In this document: piece by piece, positions 46,649-52,408 of the stretch | How the letters are laid out: the number at the start of each line of letters is the position of its first letter | How positions within the stretch are numbered: the stretch's first letter is position 1 | The notes under the pieces: generated by a model | The model's database searches: none | What the model saw: only the letters and a program-made list of their open reading frames with translations | What the model was told of the DNA's origin: nothing | IMG/VR virus record: IMGVR_UViG_3300013121_000020 | Coordinates: 290,092-354,091 of that record | Length of the DNA: 64,000 nucleotides | Reading direction: 5' to 3' (one strand) | DNA from: a virus | Taxonomy: Duplodnaviria > Caudoviricetes | Position numbers and translations under genes: made by a program

Positions 46649-46766
46649 GTGTTCAGCGGAGCTGTTGACTCTCCTGTGTATCTCATGCCAGCGGGTGGTG
46701 TGCCAGCGCGATGAGTTATTCGGCATGATGTCATATCAGCGGTGATCCTCGTGTATACGTCAGCGG
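46649..46766 (-). CRISPR. Micro-repeat array A (five 10-11 nt repeat remnants)
   Basis: Plus-strand GTGTTCAGCGG 46649, ATGCCAGCGG 46685, GTGCCAGCGC 46700, ATATCAGCGG 46733 and ACGTCAGCGG 46757 match the end of the 36-nt repeat. Gaps between them are 5-25 nt. Confidence 0.65.
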
Positions 46767-46784
46767 CATACTTACTGGTAACAT

Positions 46785-47025
46785 CTCGCTGTGATGGCTG
46801 TACTACGTACCCACAATGGCATTTTACAATCTATTCAAACCGCTAGATTGTAAAATGACTCTCACCAGTTATGGTTTGTTAATCCATGTGGTACTTGCTA
46901 ACAATTGTTGAGTTTCAATCTGTAATTGAAACTGCTTGCTTCGCAGTTACGTAGTGATTTACACTAATAGCCACCAAAGTAATGTATGACTTGTTTTTAG
47001 GCTAGTCATACATTTAATTGCGGTT
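46785..47025 (-). ncRNA. tracrRNA-like RNA copy A
   Basis: Aligns with 47127-47359 and 52169-52408, with covarying stems and an anti-repeat CAGCG at the 3' end. Confidence 0.8.
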
Positions 47026-47059
47026 GTTCTAATTATCAAAGATCGTCATAAATCTCATG

Positions 47060-47105
47060 GTGTTTCAGCGGCGATGTTCATCGGGGATACCGCGTGTGCC
47101 AGCGG
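47060..47105 (-). CRISPR. Micro-repeat array B (two remnants, 24-nt spacer)
   Basis: GTGTTTCAGCGG at 47060 and GTGCCAGCGG at 47096. Confidence 0.65.
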
Positions 47106-47126
47106 CATACTTACGGGTAGTAACAT

Positions 47127-47359
47127 CCGCTGTGGTGGCCGTATTACACACCCACATGGCACTCTGCTATTATAAGAACCGCCAAATAGCAGAACGACTC
47201 TCGCCAGTTATGGTTTGTTAATCCATGTGGTACTTGCTAACAATTATTGAGTTTCAATCTGTGATTGAAACTGCTTGCTTCGCAGTTGTGTAATGTTCAC
47301 ACTAACCACCATGTTGCATATAGCTCGTTTTTAGGCTAGCTATATGTTTTGATTGCGGT
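47127..47359 (-). ncRNA. tracrRNA-like RNA copy B
   Basis: The most diverged copy. It has compensatory changes (ATTACACA/TGTGTAAT vs ACTACGTA/TACGTAGT) and an anti-repeat CAGCGG. Confidence 0.8.
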
Positions 47360-48021
47360 CACAGTTTTTCAATACATGTATCATTAGATTCATTTATAAT
47401 GATACATCGTGAATAATCAGGCACATATGATTTAATATTGGTAGCATCAGCCCATTTTTTGAAAAATGATTTCAATTCATTCCACTGGTCCTGCGATATT
47501 TGTTCATATGCACGTTCGTGCATGTTATCTTGGATATGATCACAAACTTTGTCTTTAATATCCATTGATGATAATAATTCTTCTTTTGTAAACCATAAAT
47601 ATTCAGGACTATCACCACCACTTTCGACAATTGATTGAACGGCATCTTCAATACCGTCAAAATAATATTTATCATTAATATATAACACACCATGATAGTT
47701 TAAAGGTAATTCAGTAAGTTTTTGCGCTTTTTCAAAACGATTCTGTTCTTTTATTCTATCAAGCTTGCAGCGATGTTCACTGAAATGTTTCTTACATAGT
47801 GATTGCCAATCTGCAAACGCTTCTTCACCACAAAGTTCACAGCGATGATTGCAACATCTTTCAGCTGTTTTTCTTGCGTACTCTAGACGTGCATTTGGAG
47901 TCAATTTCTGGTTTTCAAGTGCTACTGGCGCATATTTCGCACTATGAATTGTTTGGCATTGACTACATATCCATGCGTCTAACTTCTCGCCCTGTTCATT
48001 ACATAATCGCCATGGATTCAT
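47359..48021 (-). CDS. Hypothetical Cys-rich phage protein
   Basis: 220-aa ORF with CSQC...CC..CELC...C. Confidence 0.65.
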   Translation of the reverse strand: MNPWRLCNEQGEKLDAWICSQCQTIHSAKYAPVALENQKLTPNARLEYARKTAERCCNHRCELCGEEAFADWQSLCKKHFSEHRCKLDRIKEQNRFEKAQKLTELPLNYHGVLYINDKYYFDGIEDAVQSIVESGGDSPEYLWFTKEELLSSMDIKDKVCDHIQDNMHERAYEQISQDQWNELKSFFKKWADATNIKSYVPDYSRCIIINESNDTCIEKL

Positions 48022-48050
48022 TGATTGTTGCTCACAGTTTTGTTAAATGA

Positions 48051-48362
48051 TCAGACATATAATTTCATTTCACATATGTCAGAGAACACTCGTTTGATTG
48101 CTGCTATACGCTCTTCTTTTGTAGCAAATTGTCGAGCATATAAAAACGCAATCAATTCAATGGTACCGAATCCGCCTCTACATTCTGATATATTTAGTAA
48201 TTCTTCCTGTTGGTGTCCCAAATCCACATATGATGCATATGCTTCACGGTGAAGCCATTCCGGTATCTGGATTGCCTGAGTTTGAACCGGAAACATTAGC
48301 TTATTCATATCATTTCCCTCCACATCGTTAATTAACGCATGAGCAATTGGTGCTAGATGCAC
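48051..48362 (-). CDS. Hypothetical phage protein
   Basis: IP.W....AY..Y...Q.....RGGFG..EL pattern; the true start is probably MNKLMF. Confidence 0.6.
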   Translation of the reverse strand: MHLAPIAHALINDVEGNDMNKLMFPVQTQAIQIPEWLHREAYASYVDLGHQQEELLNISECRGGFGTIELIAFLYARQFATKEERIAAIKRVFSDICEMKLYV

Positions 48363-50310: not shown

Positions 50311-50471
50311 AAATTTTTTCTATTGTGGTGATAAGTTACTAATTATTAAATACATGGTACGCAGCGTGGCGATTAATAATAATTATTAAATATGTGTGCG
50401 TTATAGGTTTACGGCGAGTTTCGACTCGCCACACTCTTATGGCTTTGACAACCCAATAATCGGAGAGTGTT

Positions 50472-51308
50472 GTGGGTAGAGTTATTAGTGGCATACACGC
50501 CGCAGCTAAATTGAGACAAGACATAAAATCAATGATTGACGTTAAAAATCCACCACATCTTGGGGTGATACTTTACTCTGATGATCATGCCAGTAAATTG
50601 TATATTAAAAAGAAACAAGAAGCATGTGCGGAAGTTGGTATTAAAAGCACACTAATCAGACCACGTACTAAAGCACAACTATTTAAAACAATTCACCGTT
50701 TAAACGATGATAAAGAATATCATGGAATAATTGTGCAACTGCCTCTTCCTAAACAAATAAATGTACACACAGTCTTTGATAATATAAACCCACTCAAAGA
50801 TGTCGACGCATTTCACCCTAGCAACATAGGTTTATTATTGCAAGGGAGACCTAGATTTATACCATGCACACCACATGGTATTCAATATTTGTTGAGCTAT
50901 CATAATATAGGAACAGTTGGTAAAAAGATTGTTATTATTAATAGGTCTGATATAGTCGGAAAGCCGTTGGCGGCATTATTGATGCAAGATCAATTAAACG
51001 CTAATGGCACTGTTGTTGTGTGTCATGATAAAACGCCAAGACCTATATTATATGAATTATGCCTTTCTGCTGATATAATAATAACTGCTGTTGGTCGTCC
51101 AAATTTTTTGACGCCAAACATGGTTACGAGTGAGTCGGTTGTGGTTGATGTTGCGATTAATAGAGTTGATGGAAAAATAGTTGGAGATGCGCATAAAAAT
51201 GTGTGTCAAAAAGTGCAGGCGATAACGCCTGTTCCGGGCGGAGTTGGGCCAATGACTGTTGCTATGTTGTTGTACAACACTGCTATGGCGTGTCGTGCGA
51301 TAGCATAA
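50472..51308 (+). CDS. folD: Methylenetetrahydrofolate dehydrogenase/cyclohydrolase
   Basis: YIKKK, GIIVQLPLP, KDVD, PCTP, RSDIVGKP and ITPVPGGVGPMT motifs. Confidence 0.95.
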   Translation: MGRVISGIHAAAKLRQDIKSMIDVKNPPHLGVILYSDDHASKLYIKKKQEACAEVGIKSTLIRPRTKAQLFKTIHRLNDDKEYHGIIVQLPLPKQINVHTVFDNINPLKDVDAFHPSNIGLLLQGRPRFIPCTPHGIQYLLSYHNIGTVGKKIVIINRSDIVGKPLAALLMQDQLNANGTVVVCHDKTPRPILYELCLSADIIITAVGRPNFLTPNMVTSESVVVDVAINRVDGKIVGDAHKNVCQKVQAITPVPGGVGPMTVAMLLYNTAMACRAIA

Positions 51309-51328
51309 TGCTATCGGACCGCTTCGAC

Positions 51329-51721
51329 GTGTCAGCAGCGGATATATTATCGGCAAGTCGCAGGTCCGGTGTCAGCGAATGTGTGGCGGTAGCGTGTCCG
51401 CCAATGTCTGTGATGATACCCTGGCCGGTGTCAGCGGATTATTCATCTTATAAATCCTATCAATTTTTCGCGTTCTTCTTCGTTCATGGCGTCTCATTCT
51501 TCGTTGGTGATACCGAGTTCATCGTGTCAGCGGCTGTTTCTTTTTGAAGCCGTTAATAATGTTTTTGATGGTGGTGTGGCAGCTGCGTCGTGTCAACGGT
51601 TTTTCTGGTGTTATTGATATACTGTCTGGGCACACTGTGGTGTCAGCGGTTAATTACAATGGTCCGCGAGTTCTGCGGTGTCAGCAGATGCTTTTTGCAT
51701 TATCATTGTCTGGGTCAGGAT
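51329..51721 (-). CRISPR. Degenerate/micro-repeat trailer of the array
   Basis: One near-full repeat at 51524-51559, plus remnants at 51329, 51369, 51428, 51590, 51640 and 51678 that keep mainly the GTGTCAGCGG end. Confidence 0.75.
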
Positions 51722-52048
51722 GTATCAGCGGTTGTTTCTTTCTGAAGCCGTTGACATCTCTTCCTTCGCGTCCTCGTCCATCTCTTCAGACACGTGTCAG
51801 CGGTTGTTTCTTTCTGAAGCCGTTGACATGTTCGTCTGGCCAGTTCTTCCGATTGCCATGATGGCGTGTCAGCGGTTGTTTCTTTCTGAAGCCGTTGACA
51901 TCCGATTCGTGGTACTCACGATTTCGGCGTACGGAAACGTGTCAGCGGTTGTTTCTTTCTGAAGCCGTTGATATTTGCGGTTCAGCGCGACCAGCTTCGA
52001 GAACGTCCAGTGGTGTCAGCGGTTGTTTCTTTCTGAAGCCGTTGATAT
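51722..52048 (-). CRISPR. CRISPR array, five 36-nt repeats and four 36-38 nt spacers
   Basis: Plus-strand repeat GTGTCAGCGGTTGTTTCTTTCTGAAGCCGTTGA(C/T)AT at 51722, 51794, 51866, 51939 and 52013. Minus orientation is inferred from degeneracy on the left and from tracr pairing. Confidence 0.96.
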
Positions 52049-52100
52049 AGTGTGATCTTTACGATTCACGGCGACGGCGTTCCGCTATATGTTTTGATAT

Positions 52101-52167
52101 TTTTTGCGAGTGATAGTATCGCACATCGATTTTTAGAGTAATCGCACGATACTATCACTCGCAAAAA
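52101..52167. terminator. 21-bp perfect inverted repeat between the array and tracr copy C
   Basis: TTTTTGCGAGTGATAGTATCG (52101-52121) / CGATACTATCACTCGCAAAAA (52147-52167). Its function as a terminator or processing site is inferred. Confidence 0.55.
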
Positions 52168-52168
52168 T

Positions 52169-52408
52169 CCGCTGTGATGGCTGTACTACGTACCCACAAT
52201 GGCGTACTATTATCTATTCAAACCGCTAGATAAATAGTACGACTCTCACCAGTTATGGTTCGTTAACCCCTGTGGTACTTGCTAACAATTGTTGAGCTTC
52301 AATCTATGATTGAAACTGCTTGTTTCGCATTTACGTAATGATTTACACTAATGGCCATCATAATACGCATGGCTTGTTTTAAGGCTAGCCATACGCTGTG
52401 ATGCGGTT
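52169..52408 (-). ncRNA. tracrRNA-like RNA copy C
   Basis: Closest in sequence to copy A. It shares the upstream GATCTTTGATAAT -10-like element with copy A and lies next to the full array. Confidence 0.82.

Follow-up and report, generated by a model that had tools for sequence, protein, structure and literature searches.

A compact Cas12b-like nuclease with fused and free scaffold RNAs in a putative CRISPR-like interference system of a huge phage

The stretch of DNA analyzed here (the window, 64,000 nucleotides) is the final 64 kb of the IMG/VR virus record IMGVR_UViG_3300013121_000020, which comprises 354,091 bp, is estimated to be 98% complete and has a GC content of 38.7%. An initial annotation, made from the sequence of the window alone, had located a phage-encoded compact Cas12 system at positions 46649-52408 and had assigned the DNA to a huge phage, which is in line with the length of the record. 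At this locus, we found a gene for a 660-amino acid (aa) RuvC nuclease, three copies of a structured scaffold RNA of about 250 nucleotides (nt), a CRISPR array and three clusters of 10-nt repeat tails. From these constituents, we conclude that the phage probably carries a working type V CRISPR-like interference system without adaptation genes. The parts of this system lie at or near the annotated interval, but the interval also covers the gene folD and two unannotated open reading frames (ORFs) of 103 and 220 aa.

The gene of the effector (P0001) occupies positions 48328-50310(-). It belongs to one minus-strand unit, which further comprises the 103-aa ORF (48051-48362(-)) overlapping the effector 3' end, the 220-aa cysteine-rich ORF (47359-48021(-)), the stop codon of which adjoins scaffold copy B (47127-47362(-)), and scaffold copy A (46787-47044(-)). 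The constituents of this unit overlap or are separated by gaps of at most 35 nt. Immediately upstream of the effector ATG, the sequence TATTTAATAATTA is present twice, 40 nt apart (50340-50392(-)), and reads as a candidate promoter or operator. The array is located 1.4 kb from the effector on the same strand. Its unit starts with a promoter-like site (TTGATA-17-TATCAT, 52489-52517(-), a consensus match only) upstream of scaffold copy C (52169-52429(-)). This copy is followed by a perfect 21-bp hairpin (about 26 bp with its A/U extension; 52101-52167(-); dG -38.4 kcal/mol, z -8.5), a 52-nt leader reaching from the hairpin to the first repeat (52049-52100(-)), the array itself (51722-52048(-)) and a region of shortened repeats, called micro-repeats here (51329-51721(-)). 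The array unit is separated from the effector operon by folD (methylene-tetrahydrofolate dehydrogenase/cyclohydrolase; 50472-51308(+); Pfam E 2e-54), which is not part of the CRISPR-like system, and the final micro-repeat ends 21 nt from the folD stop codon.

P0001 had been described as a RuvC/zinc-finger protein with all three acidic catalytic positions, and this description was confirmed. The motifs ADLG, IEDL and SDLNAA provide D405, E509 and D601, and two CxxC pairs (Cys 563/566/591/594) make up the zinc ribbon. In a 40-member family alignment, these aspartate, glutamate and cysteine positions are invariant or nearly so. Pfam recognized only the TNB zinc ribbon (PF07282, 39.2 bits, cut-off 26.3). 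Thus, P0001 combines a split RuvC domain carrying D, E and D with a TNB zinc ribbon and a nearby array, as type V effectors do. When the protein was scanned with the NCBIfam models, those for Cas12f2, Cas12b and guided TnpB were matched, all of them far under their curated cut-offs (Cas12b model NF033949, 39.9 bits, cut-off 150; guided_TnpB, 38.2 bits, cut-off 100), and no curated Cas12g model came up. Single-sequence searches with P0001 matched only the C-termini of Cas12f proteins, and phmmer gave no match to Cas12g. A wide profile of 40 family sequences hit Cas12b with E 3.7e-46 and Cas12g, over the full length, with E 9e-43; the best of the 40 members scored E 3.8e-39 against the curated Cas12b model. 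For a narrow clade profile (A4), the best match in the PDB was Cas12g (E 1.3e-13). The family profile resembled CasPhi solely in the C-terminal part with RuvC and zinc ribbon (E 2e-9 to 2.5e-8 at profile positions 547-673), and the match to Cas12p (PDB 9jfs) was marginal (E 0.13 over 60 residues only).

An AlphaFold2 model of P0001, built on the 40-sequence alignment, reached a mean confidence (predicted local distance difference test, pLDDT) of 85.6. In VIA-align comparisons, the closest structures were AacCas12b (5u30; Z 20.5, root mean square deviation 4.6 A, 601 of the 660 residues aligned) and BthCas12b (5wti; Z 20.0, 579 residues aligned), followed by Cas12-2, Cas12o, Cas12X and Cas12i (Z about 18) and by Cas12g (Z 15.7). 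Foldseek gave template modeling (TM) scores of 0.63-0.65 against Cas12b, normalized by the query. Since the scores with the curated models are low and the best fold match is Cas12b, we place P0001 outside the curated subtypes but within the Cas12b fold. As predicted by the model, it is a miniaturized bilobed effector of an unnamed family and, by the tests made, no member of V-B, V-J or V-P and apparently none of V-G. Its earlier designation as a miniature Cas12b/g-like lineage agrees with both the structural and the profile comparisons.

A scan of 1.84 billion representative proteins yielded 126 relatives of P0001, five of them at E<1e-30. The nearest relative is a gene of another huge phage, which is located on a 369.6-kb contig (L004; NCBI GCA_902731625.1) and shares 41-45% identity with P0001. 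This gene contains a single frameshift in a T-run (L004:5848-5857); assembly error, recent loss of function or programmed slippage could each explain it. Two further relatives of about 655 aa, P0003 (contig L002) and P0005/P0127 (contigs L003/L017), come from short phage-like contigs and share 27-31% identity with P0001. In a quick maximum likelihood tree, P0001, P0003 and P0005 formed a long-branched clade apart from the cellular members (support 98 in the SH-aLRT branch test), a placement in which long-branch effects are possible. This clade apparently is a deep, unnamed, phage-borne branch of a wider Cas12b/Cas12g-related family. The distant relatives P0131 and P0016 are found in cellular loci, where a Cas4-Cas1 fusion, Cas2 and an array adjoin, and P0007 is adjoined by an array; the Cas4-Cas1 fusion and Cas2 accompany the cellular relatives at loci L005 and L006. 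No relatives of the effector were found in IMG/VR with back-translated peptide patterns, and a word-index protein search with P0001 returned the query alone.

Three homologous elements of about 240 nt had been reported in the initial annotation. They are paralogs, which align over about 250 nt with a mean column identity of 85%, but their lengths vary from about 236 to 261 nt instead of being exactly 240 nt. According to nhmmer, copies A, B and C are the sole copies in the 354-kb genome. They share a common structure of 85 base pairs, 14 of which show compensatory changes among the three paralogs, and copy C folds better than shuffled sequences (z -3.6). A fourth copy was detected in L004 (nhmmer, E 0.004). 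It lies on the same strand, starts about 50 nt past the effector stop and aligns over its whole length, and when it was added to the alignment the number of compensatory pairs rose to 24. The L004 copy and the window copies share the single-stranded motifs AACCGCA, TAGTGT, GCGAAGCA, TGTTAGC, AGCGGTTTG and CCATCAC, and the stems between the two phages covary. Searches for the scaffold motifs in IMG/VR gave no match, and the five matches of the scaffold pattern in JGI metagenomes were all due to chance, with no nhmmer or tblastn support. A 5' segment of the scaffold (AGAACAACCGC in copy A, 47018-47030; GAATAACCGC in copy C, 52403-52415; GAAATAACCGC in L004) and the 3' half of the CRISPR repeat (AGAAACAACCGC) are similar, and the AACCGC of this segment is complementary to the invariant scaffold hairpin loop GCGGUU. 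This likeness could indicate a pseudoknot or a trace of repeat origin.

In L004, the scaffold ends with CCATCAC-GGCAA-CTC-TTGCC-GACAC, after which unique sequence begins. Its letters read as an anti-repeat that a 3-nt loop separates from a 10-nt repeat tail, with the guide behind this tail, and the whole molecule would be a natural single-guide RNA (sgRNA). Copies A and B of the window end alike, with CCAYCAC-AGCG(G/A), a linker of about 20 nt, CCGCT-GAC... and then unique sequence. In cassette B (47045-47126(-)), which follows copy B (3' end CCACCAC-AGCGG), the linker leads to the tail CCGCTGGCAC (47096-47105), which closes a hairpin with the anti-repeat; a guide comes next, then another tail, CCGCTGAAAC (47062-47071), and lastly a short sequence that joins copy A. 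Copy A (3' end CCATCAC-AGCGA) precedes cassette A (46645-46786(-)), which contains a linker, the tail CCGCTGACGT (46757-46766) and four further degenerate tails (CCGCTGAT, CGCTGGCAC, CCGCTGGCAT, CCGCTGAACAC) with segments of 5-27 nt between them. Minimum-energy folds of both junctions close the predicted hairpin between anti-repeat and repeat tail. Copy C (3' end CCATCAC-AGCGG) has no linker; the long hairpin, the leader and the array come next, and this copy appears to be the free form of the RNA, resembling the tracrRNAs (trans-activating CRISPR RNAs).

It can be seen from the comparison of the two phages that the duplex is AGCGG:CCGCU in the window and GGCAA:UUGCC in L004, while CCAUCAC and GACAC are unchanged. 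That the duplex changes on both sides between the phages while its flanks remain fixed is the strongest evidence for reading the scaffold 3' end as the anti-repeat and the last 10 nt of the repeat as the functional handle. A structured non-coding RNA with an anti-repeat complementary to the repeat is present near the effector, and the earlier proposal of a tracrRNA-type system is supported by the 85-pair structure with its 14 compensatory pairs and by the covariation of this putative duplex with L004.

In the array, the 36-nt repeat ATGTCAACGGCTTCAGAAAGAAACAACCGCTGACAC is present five times with a period of 72-74 nt, and its copies are separated by four spacers (36-38 nt, 54-61% GC), in agreement with the 36-nt array annotated before. 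Downstream of it follow seven micro-repeat units, each with unique sequence behind it. Six of them retain only the 10-nt tail (C/T)(C/T)GCTGACAC, with 9-10 of the last 10 repeat bases kept and 8-10 of the first 26, which is the chance level. The seventh, with its handle at 51533 (tail 51524-51533), retains the full repeat length in degenerate form (21/26 + 10/10). Exact copies of the 10-mer CCGCTGACAC number seven in the 354-kb genome, always on the minus strand and between 51428 and 52013. Near copies A and B, 530 nt of the minus strand contain the hexamer CCGCTG six times (0.085 expected, about 70-fold enrichment, P about 5e-10). Therefore, the three clusters of repeat remnants that had been noticed before are real, and all of their 10-nt tails lie on the minus strand.

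A minus-strand reading of the locus, in line with the minus-strand expression assumed in the initial annotation, is indicated by the relatives, which have their arrays on the effector strand with GGACAC, GAACAC or TGACAC as repeat ends, comparable to ...CTGACAC in the window. In this orientation, the truncated units keep the 3' end of the repeat, which is the part that remains on a type V CRISPR RNA (crRNA). The scaffold helices contain 17 G-U cells versus 3 A-C cells, and the alignment folds with -77.8 kcal/mol on the minus strand versus -73.0 kcal/mol on the plus strand, a difference that is supporting evidence only, as the structure was derived on the minus strand. The opposite reading of the array was considered, as the repeat hairpin is perfect on the plus strand alone owing to one G-U pair. 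It was rejected: the truncated units would then keep the 5' end of the repeat, the repeats of the relatives end with GACAC on the effector strand, and the fused RNA of L004 lies on the effector strand as well.

A similar layout was observed in L017, the longer contig of the P0005-type effector, which shares 28% identity with P0001. Here, the effector is followed by a 335-nt structured RNA (z -5.7), a perfect 14-bp hairpin, a leader of about 170 nt, full repeats and micro-repeats, all on the effector strand. The array contains four to five 36-nt repeats ending with GTGATGTCTGACAC, and at least eight micro-repeats (GTGATGAYCGRCAC) are spaced 11-60 nt apart. The structured RNA terminates with GUCAUCAC, and this 3' end pairs perfectly with the GUGAUGAC of the micro-repeats (-10.5 to -13.9 kcal/mol), a third version of the covarying duplex. 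The L017 RNA and the window scaffold share only position, size, the terminal CAUCAC and the hairpin that follows, and their correspondence is architectural. In the cellular relatives, gaps of about 400 nt rich in G and C precede the arrays, and a 16-nt anti-repeat is present at L006, which is consistent with the use of a tracrRNA across the family.

When the guides were compared with the genome, none matched the phage itself at <=4 mismatches in 20 nt, and none matched the region upstream of the effector or the promoters of the locus. Homology to a 73-aa ORF of the same phage (G000 235781-236002) was detected for the 86-nt segment that follows the 51533 tail. In this alignment, 45 of 57 positions are identical without gaps (local score 33; shuffled sequences 16.6 +/- 1.2), the first 20 nt of the guide contain 3 mismatches, and the guide has the sense orientation of the ORF. 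The simplest reading of this relationship is that the guide was taken from, and is aimed at, the version of this gene in a related phage. Since the 57-nt homology exceeds the canonical spacer length, the alignment hints at a capture by recombination rather than by Cas1-Cas2. No homologues of the 73-aa ORF were found in IMG/VR, and the guides of the window do not target L004, nor do those of L004 target the window. Within the captured fragment (51447-51523(-) versus G000:C1:235874-235930), a TGA stands in frame with a TGG (Trp) of the ORF. A transfer RNA with the anticodon UCA is encoded at 18767-18840(+) of the window (tRNA-SeC according to ARAGORN, Rfam tRNA 60 bits) and may be a phage opal (UGA) suppressor. 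The TGA/TGG pair could reflect, together with this transfer RNA, UGA reading in the donor phage, or a simple mutation.

The lack of cas1, cas2 and cas4, which had been noted for the window, extends to the whole genome: neither Cas1, Cas2 and Cas4 nor the transposase Y1 TnpA was found in the 98%-complete record, and the positive controls of these searches worked. No second CRISPR-like array was detected elsewhere in the 354 kb. The 103-aa and the 220-aa ORF have no Pfam or PHROG match, and neither recurs within 13 kb surrounding the effector of L004; their products may be accessory proteins or unrelated cargo. The genes adjoining the locus are of the typical phage DNA-metabolism type and include an SbcC-like gene (44543-46390), an HNH/homing endonuclease-like gene (53547-55040) and a helicase gene (55018-56754). 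Outside the window, there is a second, very divergent TnpB/Cas12-like ORF of 509 aa (G000:C1:176734-178263(-); L016:1120-2649). Its matches to the TNB, OrfB_IS605 and C2c1 RuvC-like models were sub-threshold, BLASTP gave no similarity to P0001, and a CxxC zinc ribbon is not evident in the part examined. A block with a 60-nt period at G000:C1:277853-279313 (GGCGTTGGTGATGCGT...) is probably no CRISPR array but a tandem repeat within a coding sequence.

Taken together, the anatomy of the locus, the predicted fold of the effector, the covariation of the scaffold structure and of anti-repeat and repeat, and the conservation of the layout are shown here, and from anatomy and covariation we infer its transcription, processing, binding, target type (DNA or RNA), protospacer adjacent motif (PAM) and biological role as follows. 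The effector would be guided by the scaffold RNA, the 3'-terminal CAC-AGCGG of which would pair with the repeat end CCGCU-GACAC directly 5' of the guide. Pairing of AGCGG with the CCGCU of each repeat or micro-repeat would place GACAC and the guide in the effector. This may happen in two ways. In trans, copy C would be released from a transcript of scaffold, hairpin, leader and array and would serve all five full repeats as well as the downstream micro-repeat units with their 10-nt tails. Copies A and B would act in cis: joined by the linker to a repeat tail and a guide, they would be natural sgRNAs and function like the omega-RNA of TnpB or an engineered sgRNA. These cis RNAs probably are co-transcribed with the effector operon, so that one unit would yield the nuclease and two cis-guided RNAs. 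The second unit, reaching from the promoter-like site to the micro-repeats, would yield the free tracrRNA and a pre-crRNA, and the long hairpin behind copy C is a plausible RNase III or boundary element. Since only the last 10 nt or so of the repeat would be needed for pairing and recognition, guides could be stored behind micro-repeats. The earlier suggestion that the guides are distributed, on either side of the effector, over several cassettes linked to a scaffold survived these tests. The guides are rich in G and C and seem foreign to the phage, and since at least one of them appears to be aimed at a diverged homologue of a gene of the phage itself, the likely role of the system would be the exclusion of related co-infecting phages or other competing DNA.

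The target may be DNA, as the Cas12b-like fold suggests, or RNA, as for Cas12g. In the latter case, the same system would cleave single-stranded RNA without a PAM, with collateral RNase and single-stranded DNase activity, and its guides would act on transcripts of competitors or the host. The preference of the narrow clade profile for Cas12g, the full-length alignment of the wide profile with this enzyme, its tracrRNA dependence and its similar size (767 aa; PMC10511118) speak for such an activity. However, the fold is nearer to the DNA-cutting Cas12b than to Cas12g, the sole guide with a recognizable source is ORF-sense and would not pair with the messenger RNA, and the scaffold of about 250 nt compares with 94 nt in Cas12g (PMC10511118). 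On balance, we consider RNA targeting unlikely.

Several observations weigh against a functional system of the kind proposed here. The duplex between anti-repeat and repeat comprises only 5-6 bp in the window (8 bp in L017), its energy is no better than with shuffled repeats on either strand, and the energies of the fused-junction hairpins do not differ significantly from shuffled controls; as these energies match the controls, the case for the pairing rests on covariation and position. Promoter and terminator scans of the locus showed no enrichment, and a model of the window and L004 scaffolds found no match in L017, L003 or L002 (nhmmer). The tails in cassette A are degenerate (8/10), and some of the segments between them measure merely 5-14 nt. 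For the array region and the cassettes, protospacer searches in GenBank phages and PLSDB plasmids gave chance-level matches only (E 0.2-0.8). For spacer 1 and the guide behind 51533, IMG/VR contained no exact match, and the repeat pattern used gave no match in GTDB (one genome per species, 185,579 genomes), so that no host array was identified. Finally, the L004 effector is split by its frameshift and otherwise open. The degenerate tails and short segments of cassette A, the missing targets and this frameshift, together with the irregular spacing (28-96 nt) and the lack of an adaptation module, speak for a decaying relic, an inherited CRISPR locus in which the end of the array and both cassettes, A and B, would be remnants and duplications without function and at most the five-repeat array works. 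Decay should erode the whole repeat, yet the 10-nt tail alone was kept. The helices of copies A, B and C have been preserved via compensatory changes, L004 retains the fused form with a covarying duplex, and a full array followed by micro-repeats that keep the anti-repeat-pairing part and GACAC recurs in L017 in spite of 28% protein identity. Because of this recurrence, simple decay is disfavored, and we regard the relic scenario as quite improbable.

A domesticated IS605/IS607 TnpB with its omega-RNA/reRNA would have the scaffolds as transposon right-end RNAs and the guides as flanking DNA for homing. The L004 locus does resemble an omega-RNA arrangement, in that the scaffold lies directly 3' of the effector gene and carries one guide, scaffold B starts at the stop codon of the upstream ORF, and P0001 has a TNB domain and weak matches to TnpB models. 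On the other side, the genome lacks TnpA, the effector is a single-copy gene confined, like the scaffold family, to one locus, and the guided_TnpB score (38 bits) stays under the cut-off of 100. In addition, the structural model contains a full Cas12b-like recognition (REC) lobe, a bona fide 36-nt repeat array is present, and relatives are linked to cas1, cas2 and cas4. Hence, by these tests, P0001 is not an IS605 TnpB, and this origin of the locus is very improbable. Another reading takes the fused scaffolds and solitary micro-repeats as Racr/vsgRNA-like decoys, phage anti-CRISPR RNAs by which a host Cas12 from the effector family would be sequestered or redirected. In its favor, host Cas proteins reportedly are inhibited by phage-encoded single repeat units and complete sgRNAs (PMC11656645; bioRxiv 10.64898/2026.06.01.729453), and cellular members of the effector family exist. 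Against it, an intact effector of the phage itself adjoins these RNAs, the layout accompanies the effector in both L004 and L017, the repeat pattern used was not found in the 185,579 species genomes, and no guide matches the upstream region of the effector. We consider this reading hardly credible.

Returning to the interference system proposed above, one may go a step further. It is conceivable, although we put it forward tentatively and would not be surprised to see it fail, that the window, L004 and L017 capture the splitting of a guide RNA in a Cas12b-like lineage: one scaffold would serve both as cis-acting, omega-RNA-like sgRNA and as trans-acting tracrRNA, the 10-14-nt micro-repeats would be a regular, Cas1-Cas2-free form of guide storage, and new guides would arise by recombination of longer fragments such as the 57-nt piece behind 51533. 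If so, phages would keep a non-canonical programming of Cas12 against their relatives without an adaptation module. Already if the interference system works as proposed above, the unsplit (omega-RNA-like) and split (tracrRNA plus crRNA) formats of one scaffold would coexist in one natural locus. Such coexistence would bear directly on the model in which type V CRISPR arose from TnpB by RNA splitting, a model argued until now from the much smaller TranC proteins. The compact 660-aa Cas12b-fold phage lineage would have its own natural sgRNA design, and evolution would have marked a minimal 10-nt repeat handle and an anti-repeat junction, both useful for the engineering of small editors. The array-then-micro-repeat layout would suggest a way to keep and diversify guides without Cas1-Cas2, and a guide derived from the gene of a relative would fit inter-phage warfare.

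In the papers searched, we found no description of this effector clade, of a type V locus with fused and free copies of the same scaffold, or of a conserved occurrence of 10-14-nt micro-repeats in runs. It is established that CRISPR systems of huge phages may lack adaptation modules and that viruses carry mini-arrays directed against relatives (PMC11656645). Among the known enzymes, Cas12b (V-B) is most similar to P0001, as judged from the structural match over 601 of 660 residues and the family profile (E 3.7e-46). Dependence on a tracrRNA, putative for P0001, is another shared property, and the cellular relatives of P0001 carry a V-B-style Cas4-Cas1 fusion and Cas2. The Cas12b repeat ends with ...GCAC beside the guide. 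In contrast, P0001 has 660 aa versus about 1100 aa in Cas12b and reaches 39.9 bits versus the cut-off of 150, and its system differs by the scaffold of about 250 nt, the 5-6-bp anti-repeat, the phage context and the lack of an adaptation module. Cas12g (V-G) is of the same size class (767 aa), tracrRNA-dependent and matched by the narrow and the wide profile, but a single-sequence search with P0001 does not detect it and its fold is more distant (Z 15.7). This enzyme uses a 94-nt tracrRNA with two repeat:anti-repeat duplexes and an RNA target without a PAM (PMC10511118).

The initial annotation had argued that Cas12b and Cas12g need a tracrRNA whereas the phage effectors Cas12j and Cas12L do not. 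This premise is incomplete and dated, since Cas12p 'hacker' (V-P) has been described as a phage-encoded miniature Cas12 of 500-700 aa that uses a tracrRNA (bioRxiv 10.1101/2025.01.20.633832), and because of that description tracrRNA-dependent phage Cas12 is not new as a kind. P0001 differs from Cas12p by the marginal profile match (9jfs, E 0.13 over 60 residues) and by its fused guides and micro-repeats, which are not described for Cas12p in the sections of that report considered here (bioRxiv 10.1101/2025.01.20.633832). Cas12j (CasPhi) and Cas-lambda are likewise compact type V effectors of huge phages without adaptation genes, but they are tracrRNA-independent, their similarity to P0001 is limited to the C-terminal RuvC/zinc-ribbon region, and a scaffold RNA is present in the system described here.

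With the omega-RNA/reRNA of TnpB and with TranC, the phage system shares a large structured RNA 3' of the nuclease and a guide at the 3' end of this RNA (L004; copies A and B). According to the TranC work of Jin et al. (2025, Cell; cited through PMC13565253), tracrRNA and crRNA can be viewed as a split omega-RNA, and TranC systems do occur in phages (bioRxiv 10.64898/2026.03.27.714800). Unlike TnpB and TranC (400-550 aa), P0001 is large, REC-bearing and Cas12b-like and has no transposon context, and the split and unsplit forms of one scaffold occur here in one natural locus. The CRISPR-associated transposons of type V-K, which are tracrRNA-dependent, carry a fixed guide outside the array behind a shortened repeat that keeps the tracrRNA-pairing part (bioRxiv 10.1101/2021.02.06.429022). 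However, this is a single homing guide for the nuclease-dead Cas12k in a transposon, whereas here runs of 7-12 micro-repeat units accompany a nuclease that is catalytically intact, as judged from its residues, in a phage. Natural Cas9 sgRNAs (tracr-L, phage vsgRNAs) are fused RNAs of tracrRNA, repeat and guide, some of them phage-encoded (bioRxiv 10.64898/2026.06.01.729453). Those RNAs belong to type II systems and serve as repressors or anti-CRISPRs, whereas the fused RNAs of this phage accompany a type V nuclease of their own.

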